DNA of 13,363 nucleotides from Thermoplasmatota archaeon (lineage in GTDB: Archaea > Thermoplasmatota > E2 > DHVEG-1). The notes under the pieces are model-generated. The model was not told the origin of the DNA, did not search any database, and saw only the letters and a list, made by a program, of their open reading frames with translations. The position numbers were made by a program, and so were the translations under genes. The DNA is taken from contig JARVGL010000035.1 of NCBI GenBank assembly GCA_029762575.1, forward strand, positions 1-13,363. Reading direction: 5' to 3'. Positions 1,323-11,345 of this stretch are shown here, piece after piece; within the stretch, counting starts at the first letter, position 1, and each line of letters begins with the position of its first letter.

Positions 1323-2942
1323 CTACTCCTTTGTTTGCATAGATTGTTTGGTCATGTCATCAAAAACGGAGATAGCTGCTGCGGCCCCTTCACCAACAGC
1401 CGTTACTATCTGACGGATACCTCCGGTTATATCCCCTGCTGCATAGATGCGAGGTATGATGGTTCGGCCAACCCTATCTATCTTGATAAAACCTGCTTCA
1501 TCCAAAGGGAGACCTATATCAACAGCTAGTTGATTAGCCGGTATTTCACCGATAGCCACGAACACTCCATCGACAAGTAGTTTTTCCTCCTTTTTGGACA
1601 CTGTATGGTGGATAGTAATGGATTGTACAGAGTTCGTACCAGATATTTTCTTTATCTTCGTATTGAATACGATCTTGATTCTTTCCCTGTTTACAGAATC
1701 CTGCAGTATATGTTCTGCTTGGAGATGACCCTCTCTATGGATGATTGTGACCCTTGCACCGATGGTATGAAGATATAATGCATCGGTAAGAGCGGTATTC
1801 CCACCACCGATAACAACCACATCTTTTCCTTTGAACAGATTTCCATCACATGTGGCGCAATAGCTTACTCCCCTTCCTGCGAAACGTTCTTCTCCTTCGC
1901 TCCCTAACTTTCGGTGTGATGCACCGGTTGCAAGTATCAACGCTTTTCCAAGGAATCGGTGTCTTGATGATACTGCTTCGATGTTCTTTCCTATCTTAAT
2001 CTCTTGGATGGCCTCATTTTCAAAAATCGTTACATAATCCCGAGCTTGCAAACCGATCATCTCCATCAACTGTTGACCGGGGATGTTCTTGAAACCAGGC
2101 CAGTTTTCCACAACTGGTGTTAGAAGGATCTGACCACCAACCACACCTTTTTCCACGACAACAACCTTTAAACCACTTCTTGAAGCATAGATCCCTGCGG
2201 TTAAACCTGCAGGCCCCGCGCCAACGATGATGACATCGGCACTAATAACCTCTTCATCACTCTGCTCGTCCACAACCTGTTGCTGCAATGATTTCATTTG
2301 GAGAAGTTCATCGATGAATAGATCTTCCGGTTCCAATCCTTTACTAATTGAAACATTATTGATGACCGTATGGGGTACCGCACCAACAAGGAATCTATCT
2401 GCAAGATCTGGGTGTTCTCCTGCATCGATACATTCAGCTGAGATCAGATCGGGTCGTTGGATAGCAGCTTTGAAACCATTGAGGACTTGACTGGGACAAT
2501 AAGGACACGAGAGGGTGACAAAAACCTGGATATGACGTTTTTCATTCAAAGCACCCAATGCTTCTCTATTTTTCTCTCTCATTCCACTATCTTCTTGAGA
2601 TGCCAAAAGAATTACATCAATGAATGAACGACCCTCCTCTCCTAAAGGGGCTCCCGTATATCGAATAGAATAGTTATCAGGTTGTATCAATATCGTTGGA
2701 GATCTATCCACTGAATATCTCTTAGATTCTTCATCACCGATATGATATTCTCTAACGACTATCTTATCAGAAAGCTCCTGTAGTTCACTCAGTAAATATA
2801 AGGTTATTTGATCTAGCTTACTTTCTTCATCTTTTCTAGTAAATACTGCGAGAACAACCTTTTCTTTTAAAGCTTTGAATCGATCCTTTATGACCTTTTT
2901 TGCTTCCTGGGGCAAAATCTTTTCATCAGGGGTATTCATCAA
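1323..2942 (-). CDS. Fusion oxidoreductase with AhpF-like domain order: an N-terminal PDO/glutaredoxin-like double thioredoxin fold (single CPYC site) and a C-terminal thioredoxin-reductase-type FAD flavoprotein.
   Basis: 539-aa ORF. Motifs seen, in order: N-terminal redox motif VTLSCPYCP; FAD motif VIIVGAGPAGLTAGIYASR; redox-active CATCDG; second dinucleotide fold VVVIGGGNTALTDALYL; C-terminal AAGDITGG..RQIVTAVGEGAAAA. The track start 2942 is TTG. The adjacent ATG at 2939 has GGTGGG (SD-like) just upstream and is the more likely start. Confidence 0.8.
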   Translation of the reverse strand: MMNTPDEKILPQEAKKVIKDRFKALKEKVVLAVFTRKDEESKLDQITLYLLSELQELSDKIVVREYHIGDEESKRYSVDRSPTILIQPDNYSIRYTGAPLGEEGRSFIDVILLASQEDSGMREKNREALGALNEKRHIQVFVTLSCPYCPSQVLNGFKAAIQRPDLISAECIDAGEHPDLADRFLVGAVPHTVINNVSISKGLEPEDLFIDELLQMKSLQQQVVDEQSDEEVISADVIIVGAGPAGLTAGIYASRSGLKVVVVEKGVVGGQILLTPVVENWPGFKNIPGQQLMEMIGLQARDYVTIFENEAIQEIKIGKNIEAVSSRHRFLGKALILATGASHRKLGSEGEERFAGRGVSYCATCDGNLFKGKDVVVIGGGNTALTDALYLHTIGARVTIIHREGHLQAEHILQDSVNRERIKIVFNTKIKKISGTNSVQSITIHHTVSKKEEKLLVDGVFVAIGEIPANQLAVDIGLPLDEAGFIKIDRVGRTIIPRIYAAGDITGGIRQIVTAVGEGAAAAISVFDDMTKQSMQTKE

Positions 2943-3974: not shown

Positions 3975-5603
3975 GTGACAATGGTGGAAAAAATGTCTCG
4001 AGCTATAAATCCAATTCACTCAAGAAAAAAACAAGTAATACTCATAACTGTTCTCCTTGTATCAACCCTTTTCTTCTTTCAGTCGGTCACAAGCGTTGAG
4101 AACGAAATGACCCTGCACGATCATATTAGATCCAAGAATAAAGATAAGATTGCAAGTTTAACCCTTACCGATCTTGATCCATTGGTCGATATTCATGTAA
4201 CCGTCGCCATCAAAGAGATCCATGCACTCGATGAAATCGATATCCATAGTGATCCTGATTTTTATGTCAAAATATTCATCAACGACGATCAATACACTAG
4301 TCCGGTGTGGAAGAATCAAAAATATATAACTGACCCACAGTGGTCCTGTACAAGTAATGTTCCTGATGACGAGGAATTCGTATGGATAACCATACAACTT
4401 TGGGATTGGAACATAGGCGTAGATACCCTATGTGATATCGCGGCAAACGATAATAGTAACGCAGATAGAAAGGACCTAACAGTTCTTTATAGCATCAAGA
4501 CCGGGCATTGGTATGGAGATGATATGGTGTATATACCACATTCTTGGTATATGGATCTTAGTGGGTATGGTCGTGGCAATGGATGTGATGACAACAGTAT
4601 TTACATAAAGGATAATGATTGTGAGATATGGTTTGATATCACACAAAACGACTATGATGGTGATGGGATACCATATTGGACAGAGACAGAGATATATCAT
4701 ACAGATCCAACAGTAGATGATAGAGGACGAGATGATGACAATGACGGTATCCCTATCGAATGGGAGCATAAGTGGGGTCATATGTTTGATTGGCAGTATG
4801 ATGAAGAAACCGAACAATGGAAACCAATCCATAGATGGTTCTACCACCCCTTCATATGGGATGATCATATGAATCTTGACCCCGATAACGATGGTCTAAC
4901 AAATTATGAGGAATATCTTACCTCACAATGGGGGTCAGATCCATTCAGAAAGGATTTATTCGTCGAACTTGACCAGATGCAAGCAGGCCCAGATGGGCAA
5001 CAACCAAGTATACTTCCCCAGGGGGCAAAGGACTTAATGAGGGACTCATTCAATCGACAAAACGTTGTCTTTCATCTTGATGATGGTACCTGGGAAGGCC
5101 AATCAGGATCAGACATGATCCCTTTTGCTGAAACTTCTACTTGGGAGCAGATTGATCAAATGTATCTAGATTATTTTCTACATAACGATGAAAATAACTG
5201 GCGGAGAGGAATCTTTCATCATGGCCTTGTCATCTATAATGCTGAATGGGCATGTGGGTTCTGCTTCAGACCTGATGCATTCCAGATATCTGTTGTCGGG
5301 ATGGAGAAAAAGGTTCGAAGCCCTATCTGTGGCAGTAGAGATGTCGTTTACGCCTCAGCTTATATGCATGAACTTGGACATAGTCTCGGATTGATGTTTC
5401 TAGGAGGGCATACCGAGGCTGCCTATTATCCTTGGCAGCCATTATGGTGGAAGTTCCGACCATATAAGAGTATCATGAACTACGGATATATGTACGGGTT
5501 TCTTCATGATCTTGTGGATTACTCTGATGGATCTAGAGGGAAAAACGATTTTGATGACTGGTCCAACCTTGATATGCATTATTTCCAATCATATTTCTCT
5601 TAA
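3975..5603 (+). CDS. Secreted or membrane-anchored zinc metalloprotease (metzincin-like). It has an N-terminal signal/anchor, a C2-like beta-sandwich module and TSP3-like DxDxDG calcium-binding repeats.
   Basis: 542-aa ORF.
- Hydrophobic N-terminal segment VILITVLLVSTLFFF.
- C2-like strings HALDEIDIHSDPDFYVKIFI and ITIQLWDWNIGVDTLCDI.
- Repeats DYDGDGIPYWTETEIYHTDP, DDDNDGIPIEWE and DPDNDGLTNYEEYLTSQWGSDP.
- Zinc site HELGHSLGL (nt 5367..5381), followed by a His at +10 and a Met-turn-like SIMNY.
- The track start is GTG. ATG 3981 or ATG 3993 (GGTG 6 nt upstream) are alternative starts. Confidence 0.6.
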   Translation: MTMVEKMSRAINPIHSRKKQVILITVLLVSTLFFFQSVTSVENEMTLHDHIRSKNKDKIASLTLTDLDPLVDIHVTVAIKEIHALDEIDIHSDPDFYVKIFINDDQYTSPVWKNQKYITDPQWSCTSNVPDDEEFVWITIQLWDWNIGVDTLCDIAANDNSNADRKDLTVLYSIKTGHWYGDDMVYIPHSWYMDLSGYGRGNGCDDNSIYIKDNDCEIWFDITQNDYDGDGIPYWTETEIYHTDPTVDDRGRDDDNDGIPIEWEHKWGHMFDWQYDEETEQWKPIHRWFYHPFIWDDHMNLDPDNDGLTNYEEYLTSQWGSDPFRKDLFVELDQMQAGPDGQQPSILPQGAKDLMRDSFNRQNVVFHLDDGTWEGQSGSDMIPFAETSTWEQIDQMYLDYFLHNDENNWRRGIFHHGLVIYNAEWACGFCFRPDAFQISVVGMEKKVRSPICGSRDVVYASAYMHELGHSLGLMFLGGHTEAAYYPWQPLWWKFRPYKSIMNYGYMYGFLHDLVDYSDGSRGKNDFDDWSNLDMHYFQSYFS

Positions 5604-6504: not shown

Positions 6505-8088
6505 ATGAGAAAGAAATCAGTTATCATTATCCTGATAGCCATGTTGACTGTATCAACTCTTTCTTCCCTAAGTGGGCAGAGTCAACAGGATGATCATATG
6601 ACCTTGTATAGGTCAAATTATGAAAGACTTCGTCTTATACAGGATTCTATTGACCAGAGCCAAGCAGCATGGATAGCAGATTATAATACTGTTTTTACAA
6701 AGGAATATGATTATATGCAAGAGTACCTTGGTTGTAACCAGGTAGCCTTTGATCAACCGGACACTGATCCAGGGACAACAACTGCGTCACTGCCAGATGC
6801 TTTTGATTGGAGAGATGTCGAAGGGTTGAATTATATCACCCCGATCAAGAACCAAGCCAGTTGTGGAAGCTGTGTAGCATTTGGCGCTATAGCCGCATTA
6901 GAAGCGGTCGTACAAATAGAGTCAGGTGTAATCTTTGATTGCGATCTCTCTGAATCCCATCTATTCTTCTGTGGTGGTGGAACGTGTGGTGGAGGCTGGT
7001 GGCCAGATGCAGCTGCAGATTTTATACTATCTGTTGGGGTCGTTGATGAACTCTGTTTCCCTTATGAACCTCAAGATCTTGATTGTGCCGAGTTGCAATC
7101 CAATTGGAAAAAAAGGACCATCTCAGTGGAACGTAGTGGTTCAACACAGGAAAACCAGAATATCAAGGATGCCTTGCTCACGTATGGTCCGTTGTTAACG
7201 ACCTTTTATGTCTATGAGGATTTCAGTAGTTATTCCAGTGGTATCTATGAACATGTCTGGGGAAAACTGGTTGGTGGACATGCAGTTGCTATCGTTGGAT
7301 ACAACGATGACCCCGGATATTGGATATGCAAGAACAGTTGGGGTAAAGGTTGGGGAGAATCTGGGTTCTTCAATATAAACTATCGATCATGTAACATAGA
7401 CAGTAAGGTATATTATTTTGATGAGGTACGTGGAAACATTCAGCCAACGAAACCTCAGAATATCACTCCCGCCCATGGACAGCGATCCCTAGAGACCTCA
7501 GTTCTTTTCGAATGGTCTCCATCAATCGATATCGATGGAGGTGCGGTCACCTATACCATCTATCTTAATGAAGGATATCACATAGACTTTGATGCAGAAC
7601 CTCTTATCAGTAATCTTTCAACAAATAAATATTGGATCACCGATCTAAAGAAGAATACCCGTTACATCTGGCAAGTTATCTCTGAGGATGAAGATGGTGC
7701 TCAGCATAGTTCAGGACCACAATCATTCATCACAAAAAAACCGGATGCTCCATATGTAAACGGTCCGACAAAAGCTAAAGTCGATAAACAGCATACCTAT
7801 ACCGCTTCAACTTCTGATGCCTCAGGTGAGGAATACTACTGGTATTTTCAATGGGGTGACCAAGGGACATCTGGATGGTTAGGTCCCTATGACAAAGGCC
7901 AACAGGTTTCTGCAAACCATATCTGGAAGGACACCGGTAATTTCACGATAAAAGTAAAATATACAGAGGATGGGATCGAAAGCGAATGGGGAACGTTACA
8001 AGTAAGTATGCCCTATAAGGATTCATATGAACTCATCAACCATTTCCTCTTAAGGTTACGGAACCGCTTTCTATCTCTAATTTATTGA
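6505..8088 (+). CDS. Secreted papain-family (C1A) cysteine peptidase with C-terminal FN3-like and PKD-like domains.
   Basis: 527-aa ORF.
- Signal-peptide-like N-terminus MRKKSVIIILIAMLTVSTLSSLSG.
- Catalytic motifs NQASCGSCVAF (Cys codon 6871..6873), GGHAVAIVGY (His) and ICKNSWGKGWGESGFF (Asn).
- FN3-like segment PTKPQNITP...VLFEWSPSIDIDGGAVTYTIY.
- PKD-like segment YYWYFQWGDQGTSGW...ANHIWKDTGNFTIKVKYTEDG.ESEW.
- AGGT lies 7 nt upstream of the ATG. Confidence 0.85.
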   Translation: MRKKSVIIILIAMLTVSTLSSLSGQSQQDDHMTLYRSNYERLRLIQDSIDQSQAAWIADYNTVFTKEYDYMQEYLGCNQVAFDQPDTDPGTTTASLPDAFDWRDVEGLNYITPIKNQASCGSCVAFGAIAALEAVVQIESGVIFDCDLSESHLFFCGGGTCGGGWWPDAAADFILSVGVVDELCFPYEPQDLDCAELQSNWKKRTISVERSGSTQENQNIKDALLTYGPLLTTFYVYEDFSSYSSGIYEHVWGKLVGGHAVAIVGYNDDPGYWICKNSWGKGWGESGFFNINYRSCNIDSKVYYFDEVRGNIQPTKPQNITPAHGQRSLETSVLFEWSPSIDIDGGAVTYTIYLNEGYHIDFDAEPLISNLSTNKYWITDLKKNTRYIWQVISEDEDGAQHSSGPQSFITKKPDAPYVNGPTKAKVDKQHTYTASTSDASGEEYYWYFQWGDQGTSGWLGPYDKGQQVSANHIWKDTGNFTIKVKYTEDGIESEWGTLQVSMPYKDSYELINHFLLRLRNRFLSLIY

Positions 8089-9148: not shown

Positions 9149-9223
9149 TGCTCCCGTCGGGATTCGAACCCGAGTCCCCAGCTCGAAAGGCTGGAATGAT
9201 TGGCCGGACTACACTACGGGAGC
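9149..9223 (-). tRNA. tRNA-Glu (anticodon UUC), archaeal type, no encoded CCA.
   Basis: Minus-strand reading: GCTCCCG TA GTGT AGTCCGGCCAA TCAT T CCAGC CTTTCGA GCTGG GGAC TCGGG TTCGAAT CCCGA CGGGAGC A. It forms a full cloverleaf with a 7-bp acceptor stem, a perfect anticodon stem, anticodon TTC and T-loop TTCGAAT. The D-arm GTGTAGTCCGGCCAATCAT is the typical archaeal tRNA-Glu form. Confidence 0.9.
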
Positions 9224-9244
9224 AAATGAAAATATTTATTTGAG

Positions 9245-9316
9245 CAGCCCTGCCCAGATTCGAACTGGGGTCGCTGGCTCCAAAGGCCGGCGTGTTAACC
9301 GCTACACTACAGGGCT
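9245..9316 (-). tRNA. tRNA-Gln (anticodon UUG), copy A: A1-U72, discriminator G73, perfectly paired D-stem GUGU/ACAC.
   Basis: Minus-strand reading: AGCCCTG TA GTGT AGCGGTTA ACAC G CCGGC CTTTGGA GCCAG CGAC CCCAG TTCGAAT CTGGG CAGGGCT G. The anticodon loop CTTTGGA gives UUG. The anticodon stem has one C28xA42 mismatch. No CCA is encoded. Confidence 0.85.
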
Positions 9317-9402
9317 ATCATCCACTTCTATATAAATGGTGTTGATACACCCGAAACAAGGATATCCTATTTATAATTTACAGATTTCAATCTTTAATAG
9401 AA

Positions 9403-9475
9403 TAGCCCCGTCTAGATTCGAACTAGAGTCACTGGCTCCAAAGGCCGGTATGATTGACCGCTACACCACGGGGCT
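9403..9475 (-). tRNA. tRNA-Gln (anticodon UUG), copy B: A1-U72, discriminator A73, archaeal Glu/Gln-type D-arm.
   Basis: Minus-strand reading: AGCCCCG TG GTGT AGCGGTCAA TCAT A CCGGC CTTTGGA GCCAG TGAC TCTAG TTCGAAT CTAGA CGGGGCT A. Its 17-nt anticodon arm is identical to copy A, including the C28xA42 mismatch. No CCA is encoded. Confidence 0.85.
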
Positions 9476-9498
9476 ATGAAATTCCCCCATAGTTTCTG

Positions 9499-9509
9499 AT
9501 ATTAAAAAT
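9499..9509 (-). promoter_or_regulatory. TATA-box-like element (minus-strand ATTTTTAATAT) centred about 29 nt upstream of the mature 5' end of tRNA-Gln copy B.
   Basis: Read directly. The spacing fits an archaeal TATA box at about -26/-27 with a 2-3 nt leader. It lies in the 50-nt gap between the GlnRS stop and the tRNA. Confidence 0.35.
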
Positions 9510-9525
9510 GTTGGTTTTTTTGCGG

Positions 9526-11211
9526 TCAGTTCTTTCCCTGATCTTGGACTTTTGCCCAGGTGTCTTTGAGATTGACCGTTCGGTTGATCACTAGATCATC
9601 CTTGTTTGTCTCTGGGTCGATGCAGAAATAACCGAGTCGTTCGAACTGGAATCGTTCAAATGGTTTTAACTGTTTTAGCGTTGGTTCCACCTTGCATGAT
9701 TGTAAGATCTCTAATGAAGCAGGGTTGAGGAATTCTTTGAAGTCAGTATCTTTTTGTCCTGTTGGTTCTTTGACCGTGAACAATCTATCATATAATCTTA
9801 TCTCTGCATCTACTGCATTGGATGCTGAGACCCAGTGAATGGTTGATTTCACCTTTCGGCCGTCTGGTGCATATCCTCCTTTTGAGGCTGGGTCGATGGT
9901 TCCATGTAGTTCAACGATCTCATCATTTTCTTCAATTACATCAGTACATGTCAAGAGATATGCATATCGTAATCGAACCTCTCTTCCTAAAGTTAATCTG
10001 AAGAATTTTTTTGGTGGGTCTTTCATAAAATCTGTTTTCTCTATATAGAGTTCTTTTGTGAAATGGATGTTCCGAGTTCCTTCTTCAGGTCTTTCAGGGT
10101 TTATCATTGCCTCTAGTTCTTCTGTTGTCTCTTCTTGGTAATTATCGATGATGACCTTTAGAGGATGTAACACACCCATATATCGTGGGCAGGTTTGGTT
10201 GAGGTGTTCTCGAACGCAGTGTTCAAGGAATTCAAAGTCAACGGTGCTGTTGACCTTTGCTACTCCGATACGGCTGCAGAAGGCTCGTATGGATTCAGGT
10301 GAATAGCCTCTTCGTCTCATCCCACTAATAGTTGGTAATCGAGGGTCGTCCCATCCGTTGACATGGTGTAACTGGACAAGGTTTAGAAGCATGCGTTTGC
10401 TCATGATGGTATAGCTAAGATTTAATCGAGCGAACTCTATCTGTTGAGGATGATATATCTGTAGTTTATCTAAGAACCAGTCGTAGAGTGGTCTATGATT
10501 CTCGAATTCAAGGGTGCAGATGGAATGGGTTATGTTTTCTATGGAATCTTCCAGGCCATGGGCCCAGTCATACATTGGGTATATACACCATGTATCCTTT
10601 GTTCGATGATGGGTTGCATGAAGTACCCTATACATGACTGGGTCTCGCATGTTCAGATTTGGATGGTTCATATCTATCTTTGCACGAAGGACCTTTTCCC
10701 CATCTAAGAATGCTCCTTCCTTCATTTTTTGAAACAACGAGAGGTTCTCATCCACCGATCGATTACGGTATGGGCTGTTTGTTCCTGGTTGGGTTATTGT
10801 TCCCCTGGTCTCACTGATCTCTTTAGCGCTGAGATCATCAACATATGCATACCCTGCCTGTATCAGCTGAATGGCATACTCATACATCTGTTGAAAGTAA
10901 TCTGAGGCAAAGAACAGACGGTCCTCCCAGTCGAATCCAAGCCAACGTACATCTTCAATGATCGAATGAACATATTCATCTTCTTCTTTAGTTGGGTTTG
11001 TATCATCAAATCGAAGATTACAGAGACCACCGTACTCTTTTGCGATCCCAAAGTTTAAACAGATAGATTTTGCATGACCGATGTGTAGATACCCGTTTGG
11101 TTCAGGTGGGAATCGAGTATGGATACGACCCTGATAGGTATTGTTTTTTATGTCTTCATCGATTATCTCTCGTATGAAATCCTTTTTTTCAGTTAGATCA
11201 TCTATTGCCAT
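9526..11211 (-). CDS. glnS: Glutaminyl-tRNA synthetase (GlnRS), bacterial-type length and sequence.
   Basis: 561-aa ORF, colinear with E. coli GlnRS as I recall it. [10 protein letters not shown]...[44 protein letters not shown] matches FIRQIIDEDL...[44 protein letters not shown]. The HIGH motif is present. The MSK motif is IMSKR, against VMSKR in E. coli. Other matching blocks are [64 protein letters not shown] and [13 protein letters not shown]. There is no eukaryote-type N-terminal extension. Confidence 0.95.
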
Positions 11212-11345
11212 GGGTTCACTCTTTAAAATTCTATAATGAAACTGGTCTTCTTAGTTTTTTTATCCGGGAAGCATGATTGATAGTATGCTATATAACCTTT
11301 AACTTTTTTAACTATAGAGCGCATGTATATGCTGGTTGATTCTTT

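Follow-up and report, generated by a model that had tools for sequence, protein, structure and literature searches.

The DNA analyzed here, referred to as the window, is the whole 13,363-nt stretch of contig JARVGL010000035.1 (assembly GCA_029762575.1) from a Thermoplasmatota archaeon; on its minus strand, it encodes a bacterial-type glutaminyl-tRNA synthetase (GlnRS; gene glnS, 9526..11211) followed by two tRNA-Gln(UUG) genes and one tRNA-Glu(UUC) gene. Comparison with related loci points to a probable history in which a bacterial glnS was anciently transferred to the archaeal lineage and the host's own tRNA-Gln genes, rather than being acquired together with the enzyme, were then retuned for direct glutaminylation. 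The enzyme itself is an ordinary bacterial-type GlnRS; what is unusual is the domain of its host and the fate of the host tRNAs.

A bacterial-type GlnRS in archaeal hosts

The 561-aa glnS product, identified by open reading frame (ORF) calling, NCBIfam and Pfam, reached 719 bits with the NCBIfam equivalog TIGR00440 (cutoff 425.8). The archaeal glutamyl-tRNA synthetase (GluRS) model TIGR00463 returned 354.7 bits, short of its 401.75 cutoff, the bacterial GluRS model returned 72 bits, and every GluRS model stayed below its cutoff. Pfam placed tRNA-synt_1c (PF00749) at residues 30-338 and recognized both anticodon-binding barrels (PF03950 and PF20974). Among solved structures, the best match was E. 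coli GlnRS (677 bits, 55% identity), with which the window protein is colinear over E. coli residues 8-552, the alignment starting at window residue 10. Two chains of 776-799 residues (4ye6, 4r3z), which we take to be human GlnRS, scored 462 bits and 4h3s, presumably yeast GlnRS, 402 bits; an archaeal GluRS structure reached 187 bits. The HIGH signature occupies residues 43-46 (11074..11085, minus strand; motif position and alignment to E. coli), the MSK of the KMSKS loop residues 270-272 (10396..10404, minus strand; motif position, in the columns of E. coli M268/K270), and the protein has neither the eukaryotic N-terminal domain nor a YqeY tail. In keeping with a preliminary description of this DNA, which had proposed a full-length GlnRS with HIGH and MSK motifs and close colinearity to the E. 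coli enzyme, the window protein is a true bacterial-type GlnRS and not a GluRS.

The top NCBIfam model, at 848 bits, was NF011291/PRK14703, which describes the Deinococcus-type GlnRS/YqeY fusion (2HZ7). This match spans model positions 10-562 of 769, and the window protein ends at residue 561, without the YqeY/GatB-like C-terminal domain of ~200 aa. Proteins of the archaeal clade described below are already auto-annotated in NCBI; since the match stops at model position 562, the product name 'GlnRS/YqeY domain fusion' given there is wrong.

The alignment used to compare functional residues comprised 119 clade members and 75 bacterial relatives together with E. coli GlnRS, whose numbering is used here. 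Invariant in the window protein and the 119 clade sequences are R30, H40, H43, Y211, C229, Q255 and K270, which we take from the E. coli complex to be glutamine- and ATP-site residues (R30, Y211, C229 and Q255 selecting glutamine), as well as R341, R402, R410, Q517 and R520, presumably the residues that read U35 and G36 of the anticodon in that complex. At position 136, the hydrophobic wedge, 115 clade members carry Leu and the window protein Ile. Position 235 is Asn in all archaeal clade sequences and in 22 of the 75 bacterial relatives, most of the closest among them; the Asp found there in E. coli presumably reads G3-C70, and we take D235N to be a relaxed-specificity mutant. PDB entry 1QRS also has Asn at this position, unlike wild-type E. 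coli GlnRS. N235 was considered as an archaeal adaptation or as a response to C3-G70 in the tRNA and rejected, as bacterial N235 enzymes adjoin tRNA-Gln genes with G3-C70; S130 was dismissed as an archaeal adaptation because it is present in bacteria too. Clade-specific substitutions at conserved columns number only three (positions 437, 510 and 538), and none was found in this alignment at a known tRNA contact. Overall, the clade GlnRS looks intact and apparently fully functional and is predicted to form Gln-tRNA-Gln. One close homolog, P0003, has 832 aa instead of the usual ~561 with the same three Pfam domains, and may represent a gene-call read-through or a fusion.

Clade members are 72-100% identical to each other in GlnRS; no bacterium exceeds 74% identity to them, and E. 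coli shares 55%. Clade size is a lower bound, with at least 119 further 90%-identity clusters that are 75-94% identical to the window GlnRS. When one genome per GTDB species was scanned, the best 80 loci listed were all bacterial (59-68% identity), with Pirellulales, Anaerohalosphaeraceae and other Planctomycetota in the lead. A neighbor-joining (NJ) tree of 156 sequences and 549 columns grouped the archaeal GlnRS sequences as one clade in 100/100 bootstraps and nested it among bacterial GlnRS; the nearest neighbors were Pirellulales, Anaerohalosphaeraceae and planctomycete loci. These relationships fit a single old bacterium-to-archaeon transfer of glnS followed by vertical diversification, in which the ancestor of a sediment-dwelling Thermoplasmatota lineage would have gained one bacterial glnS, nearest to the Planctomycetota type.

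As an alternative, the contig could be mis-binned or chimeric, with bacterial glnS joined to archaeal DNA by an assembly error. Nothing beyond the bacterial affinity of the GlnRS protein itself speaks for such an artifact, and we consider its probability negligible. The same glnS junctions occur in independent assemblies from JGI, ENA, NCBI and Logan; among them, a 67-kb JGI contig with a 94% identical GlnRS repeats most of the gene content of the window with small rearrangements, and two clade members belong to chromosomes 1.82 and 1.92 Mb in size (CP070712.1, CP070798.1) labeled Thermoplasmatales archaeon. The GC content of the window is even (0.34-0.45 in 1-kb windows), with no composition break. 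Replicated synteny and even GC together exclude mis-binning for practical purposes, which settles the concern, voiced at the outset, that the contig might be bacterial or chimeric. The exact window protein exists in NCBI as a protein of a metagenome-assembled genome (MAG) of 'Candidatus Thermoplasmatota archaeon', and related loci are flanked by genes of archaeal or eukaryotic type (PAC2, NAC, ELP3, an MCM-like AAA protein, MJ1316 and DUF131). We also count as evidence for an archaeal host the tRNA-Glu(UUC) gene beside glnS in locus L088 (L088:4330-4459), which contains a 55-nt intron at the canonical position 37/38. Its orthologs in the window and other loci are intron-free.

Host-type tRNA-Gln genes beside glnS

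Our comparison covered 14 distinct clade loci (the window, L082, L084, L174, L168, L083, L081, L169, L171, L173, L088, L098, L175 and L176), with L088 and L098 being the only clade members among the 80 loci listed by a metagenome scan with C-terminal alignment. All 14 possess at least one archaeal-type tRNA-Gln gene on the glnS strand, within ~250 nt. In the commonest layout, tRNA-Gln(CUG)-glnS-tRNA-Gln(UUG)-tRNA-Glu(UUC), the CUG gene lies 25-110 nt upstream of glnS and the UUG gene 64-220 nt downstream. The window sub-lineage (window, L082, L084 and L174) has no upstream CUG gene and two UUG genes downstream. Outer genes vary from locus to locus and include CinA-RtcA, FG-GAP/PEPCK, an MCM-like gene or a C11 peptidase. 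Because the adjacency of glnS and tRNA-Gln is kept in all loci despite these changing flanks, it is more than chance. Less constant is tRNA-Glu(UUC), initially counted as a member of the module: it directly follows tRNA-Gln(UUG), after 3-22 nt, in 7 of the 14 loci (window, L082, L084, L174, L168, L171 and L088), and in L083 it is 1.1 kb away.

The preliminary description had also regarded linkage of a synthetase gene to its cognate tRNA genes as unusual in itself. It is not unique, as among ~119 bacterial glnS loci 12 tRNA-Gln genes were found, ~10x a rough chance estimate of ~1%; E. coli has its four tRNA-Gln genes ~9 kb from glnS. With ~10% of bacterial glnS loci adjoining a tRNA-Gln gene, a donor fragment could have carried one, and the linkage would then be the relic of a cassette in which glnS arrived together with bacterial tRNA-Gln genes. 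This scenario is highly improbable, given that the flanking tRNAs are archaeal throughout (A1-U72, AGCCC acceptor stem, archaeal D- and T-arm) and align with control archaeal tRNA-Gln instead of the bacterial UGGGG-type. Co-transfer of bacterial tRNA-Gln genes is therefore all but refuted. Of the acquired module originally proposed, comprising the synthetase and its substrate tRNAs, the foreign glnS stands and the foreign tRNAs do not: these start with AGCCC, as host-type tRNAs, and not with UGGGG. The glnS gene sits inside the host's own tRNA-Gln cluster, has diversified with the lineage and agrees with the host in base composition.

ARAGORN and Rfam RF00005 agree on three tRNA genes in the window, all on the minus strand: tRNA-Gln(UUG) copy 1 (9403..9475; Rfam 54.0 bits), tRNA-Gln(UUG) copy 2 (9245..9316; 61.2 bits) and tRNA-Glu(UUC) (9149..9223; 59.4 bits). 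Downstream of glnS, the spacers measure 50 nt to copy 1, 86 nt to copy 2 and 21 nt to tRNA-Glu, exactly as first described. Equally accurate was the view of these tRNAs as archaeal in type, with CCA unencoded in all three and A1-U72 in both tRNA-Gln genes. The tRNA-Glu is of archaeal type (G1-C72, A73) and, lying 21 nt from copy 2, is probably co-transcribed with it.

The two tRNA-Gln(UUG) genes of the window, previously treated as equivalent, are no duplicates; they represent one of each of two classes that recur across the clade. Copy 1, a class I gene, has A1-U72, the discriminator base A73 and the D-loop GGTCAATCAT, and thus combines both hallmarks of canonical archaeal tRNA-Gln, A1-U72 and A73 (Marck & Grosjean 2002, as cited in PMC9499178). 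Copy 2, a class II gene, has an archaeal body (A1-U72, G2-C71, C3-G70) but G73, and its D-loop is one nucleotide shorter (GGTTAA-CAC). According to PMC9499178, A73 is the archaeal and G73 the bacterial state of tRNA-Gln.

All upstream CUG copies and all other functional UUG copies downstream belong to class II, which amounts to 18 distinct sequences, each with G73. They share A1-U72, G2-C71, C3-G70 and G10, and their D-loop (GGTTAA-CAT) falls one nucleotide short of the canonical length. G1·U72 replaces A1-U72 in tRNA-Gln of L173 (9893-9964 and 11784-11855) and L175 (1771-1842). In the 18 sequences, 99.5% of the helix cells are paired and compensatory changes occur at 9 of 21 pairs, which marks class II genes as constrained, working tRNAs. 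Their only unpaired cells are the C28·A42 positions of the window sub-lineage.

This C28·A42 mismatch also occurs in the anticodon stem of copy 1; indeed, the anticodon arm is identical in both tRNA-Gln genes of the window, mismatch included. Copy 1 of L174 has a perfect U28-A42 pair instead. The pattern suggests that gene conversion may have taken place between class I and class II in the branch of the window and L082.

Class I genes are positioned immediately 3' of glnS and are characterized by A73 and the D-loop GGYCAATCAT. Controls from a pattern scan of IMG/VR contigs gave the same picture, with A73 and a D-loop of the class I type in 6/6 archaeal-type tRNA-Gln. The window, L082, L084 and L174 have an intact class I gene; the L083 copy has G2·A71 and C27·A43 mismatches and scores 30.5 bits with Rfam, and in the remaining clade loci class I is missing, with no room beside glnS. 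Since the loci with class I fall in separate parts of the GlnRS tree, it was present in the clade ancestor and has been decaying since. A class I-like gene in L168 (L168:1857-1929) has A73 and good acceptor, D and T arms together with a 6-nt anticodon loop (CUUAGG), and receives the label 'tRNA-?(Stop|Leu), anticodon ta' from ARAGORN. Most likely this gene is a class I tRNA-Gln in decay; less probably, it has an odd decoding or a regulatory role.

Two further features of the window concern tRNA-Gln expression and decoding. A TATA-like element, TTTTTAATA, recognized by sequence reading at 9500..9508 on the minus strand and centered ~29 nt upstream of copy 1, is a putative promoter of copy 1's own. 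In the ORFs of the window, CAG makes up 43% of glutamine codons; ARAGORN and Rfam detected no trace of a CUG tRNA gene in the interval upstream of the window glnS (11212-11345). With no CUG copy at this locus, the reading of CAG must fall to a U34 tRNA or to a CUG gene that is unlinked.

Direct and indirect routes to Gln-tRNA-Gln

For direct glutaminylation, GlnRS must open the first base pair of tRNA-Gln, which favors a weak 1-72 pair, and G73 stabilizes the hairpinned 3' end of the tRNA, as is reported from the structures of Rould and Steitz. In the proposed history, GlnRS would charge class II tRNA-Gln directly with glutamine. Host tRNA-Gln would have moved from A73 to G73, the state of tRNA-Gln beside donor-type enzymes: the bacterial N235-type loci L014, L017, L037 and L062 have tRNA-Gln with G73. 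The retuned tRNAs would have retained weak pairing at 1-72 (A1-U72 or G1·U72), G2-C71 and G10 and dropped one D-loop nucleotide. With tRNA-Glu being G1-C72/A73, G73 may in addition cut glutamylation of tRNA-Gln by the host GluRS, so that the switch would part Glu and Gln identities without a change in GluRS. The A73 tRNA-Gln 3' of glnS would be the ancestral gene, decaying or lost in most lineages. Because the D-loop and A1-U72 are the elements of tRNA-Gln that GatDE reads (PMC9499178), D-loop shortening and the emergence of G1·U72 in two lineages hint, indirectly, at a relaxed GatDE constraint.

The order of events could have been the reverse, with G73/short-D-loop tRNA-Gln older than the arrival of glnS; such pre-adaptation would explain why the transfer succeeded here only, and the tRNAs would have remained unchanged afterwards. 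G73 is present in all clade members, basal L175 and L176 included, and no intermediate states were seen among the clade loci, both as expected from this order. Against it, the canonical A73 paralog survives at the glnS locus in scattered branches, from which it follows that the A73 state existed in the clade ancestor. We rate pre-adaptation as unlikely.

Within the window sub-lineage, two readings apply: either both tRNA-Gln genes are GlnRS substrates, or two routes operate on separate tRNAs. Under the second, copy 1 would be served by GluRS of the non-discriminating type (ND-GluRS) plus GatDE and copy 2 by GlnRS, the discriminator base and the D-loop length keeping the two apart. All four members (window, L082, L084 and L174) have an intact copy 1 with the canonical D-loop and A1-U72, elements that GatDE reads (PMC9499178), and copy 1 has its own TATA-like element; a precedent for separation by G73 versus A73 is provided by the two PylRS pairs of HMET1, to judge from their citation in PMC9499178. 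Insulation of this kind is called into question by the C28·A42 mismatch of copy 1 in the window, by the decay or loss of its orthologs elsewhere, and by the chance that GlnRS may also charge A73 tRNAs, as it apparently does in Bacteroidota. On balance, separate routes are possible but doubtful. The locus would then present a living intermediate in the replacement of an indirect by a direct route, with two orthogonal tRNA-Gln(UUG) side by side and a self-sufficient tRNA-Gln(G73)-glnS-tRNA-Gln(G73) cassette remaining intact amid changing surroundings, a picture to which we assign a similarly tentative standing.

Several points weigh against transfer followed by retuning as we propose it. The survey of tRNA-Gln covers glnS-linked loci, and the control set with which class I was compared is small (6) and stems from contigs of viral or proviral origin with unknown hosts. 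Tree inference was by NJ only, with 21-40% support for the sister relation to the Planctomycetota type. On the enzyme side, no archaea-specific adaptation was found, N235 and S130 being shared with some bacteria. The intact A73 copy of the window speaks against simple obsolescence of class I in its sub-lineage, and Bacteroidota-type GlnRS loci, with V/I235, carry A73 tRNA-Gln, so that G73 is perhaps not strictly required. G73 could predate the transfer, which would make its presence a pre-adaptation and not a product of co-evolution, and GlnRS may either replace the GatDE route or run parallel to it. Neither the window nor the ±10 kb around glnS in 12 related contexts contained gatD, gatE or a non-discriminating gltX, and supplements of Thermoplasmatota genome papers yielded no entry for K01886, K09482, K03330, gatD or gatE.

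In the Bacteroidota-type loci L040, L053, L059 and L133, Val or Ile occupies the Asp235 position, and the adjacent tRNA-Gln has U1-A72, G2-C71, U-A or C-G at 3-70, and A73. The Gln identity set of these four loci is quite unlike that of E. coli.

Genomic neighborhood and relation to known systems

Besides glnS and the tRNA genes, the window encodes an Ogg-HhH protein (1-~543, minus strand; domain match), an HTH protein, PAC2, CinA, RtcA and PrsW, identified by domain matches that agree with the preliminary description as regards Ogg, the HTH regulator and PAC2. A 539-aa fusion protein (1323-2942, minus strand) combines a protein-disulfide-oxidoreductase module of two thioredoxin folds (TIGR02187, 180 bits) with a thioredoxin reductase; its architecture is AhpF-like, and it is kept beside PAC2 in L084 and L174. 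On the plus strand, 3975-5603 encodes a secreted-looking protein of 542 aa with a weak C2-domain match, many Asp-rich DxDxDG-like repeats in the style of calcium-binding sites and a HELGH zinc-protease motif near the C-terminus, and 6505-8088 a papain-family C1 peptidase with fn3/PKD domains. C25 (gingipain-like), C11 and M14 peptidases are encoded in L081, L084, L174 and L176. Secreted peptidases of the C1, C11 and C25 families fit a benthic lifestyle of these Thermoplasmatota based on the degradation of detrital protein, perhaps as MBG-D-like archaea.

The closest characterized counterpart is the E. coli system. The clade enzyme shares with E. coli GlnRS (1GSG/1QTQ; TIGR00440) the domain order, HIGH and MSK, the glutamine-binding residues, the wedge (L/I136) and the anticodon-reading residues, and the flanking tRNAs share with E. 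coli tRNA-Gln G73, G2-C71, G10, U35, G36 and a weak 1-72 pair. In E. coli, the Gln identity set consists of the anticodon, acceptor stem, discriminator and 10-25 pair (PMC9976931). The clade tRNAs have A1-U72, C3-G70 and G37/A38 where E. coli has U1-A72, G3-C70 and A37/U38; in further contrast, their host is an archaeon, the enzyme has Asn235 in place of Asp, and glnS lies directly among tRNA-Gln genes and not ~9 kb away. With the archaeal indirect route (ND-GluRS plus GatDE), the clade has in common the formation of Gln-tRNA-Gln in an archaeon and, in copy 1, the canonical substrate features. It differs in that a gene for the direct synthetase is present and most tRNA-Gln of the locus depart from the canonical identity through G73, the shorter D-loop and, in L173 and L175, G1·U72.

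Enzyme-tRNA co-evolution that re-partitions Glu and Gln through identity changes at the acceptor end is likewise known from GluRS2 and tRNA-Gln of Helicobacter pylori (Salazar et al. 2003, as summarized in PMC9976931). That case, in the summary given there, concerns a duplicated GluRS within bacteria and the indirect route, whereas here GlnRS was transferred between domains and the change lies on the tRNA side. GlnRS beside cox genes has been mentioned in passing for MAGs of Asgard Hodarchaeales/Kariarchaeaceae (bioRxiv 10.1101/2024.07.04.601786), that is, in another phylum and another gene neighborhood, with no analysis of tRNAs. This was the only mention of an archaeal GlnRS in the searchable full-text literature, outside which subscription journals lie; within it, we found no description of a Thermoplasmatota GlnRS clade, of a conserved tRNA-glnS-tRNA unit or of a discriminator switch.

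Published reviews and surveys deny GlnRS to all archaea (PMC9499178, 2022; PMC5388404, 2016; PMC3439900), and explain this absence by an incompatibility of archaeal tRNA-Gln (A73, A1-U72) with GlnRS, a hypothesis of Tumbula et al. 2000 in the form relayed by these reviews. A large, diversified archaeal clade with a bacterial GlnRS runs against the first statement. As to the second, the glnS-linked tRNA-Gln of the clade have changed exactly the discriminator base that the hypothesis names, with the canonical copy decaying alongside, and an argument that is 25 years old, on why archaea never gained the direct pathway, thereby becomes testable. The clade offers a natural example of how a synthetase and its tRNAs are re-fitted to each other after inter-domain transfer, which is of relevance to the engineering of orthogonal pairs.

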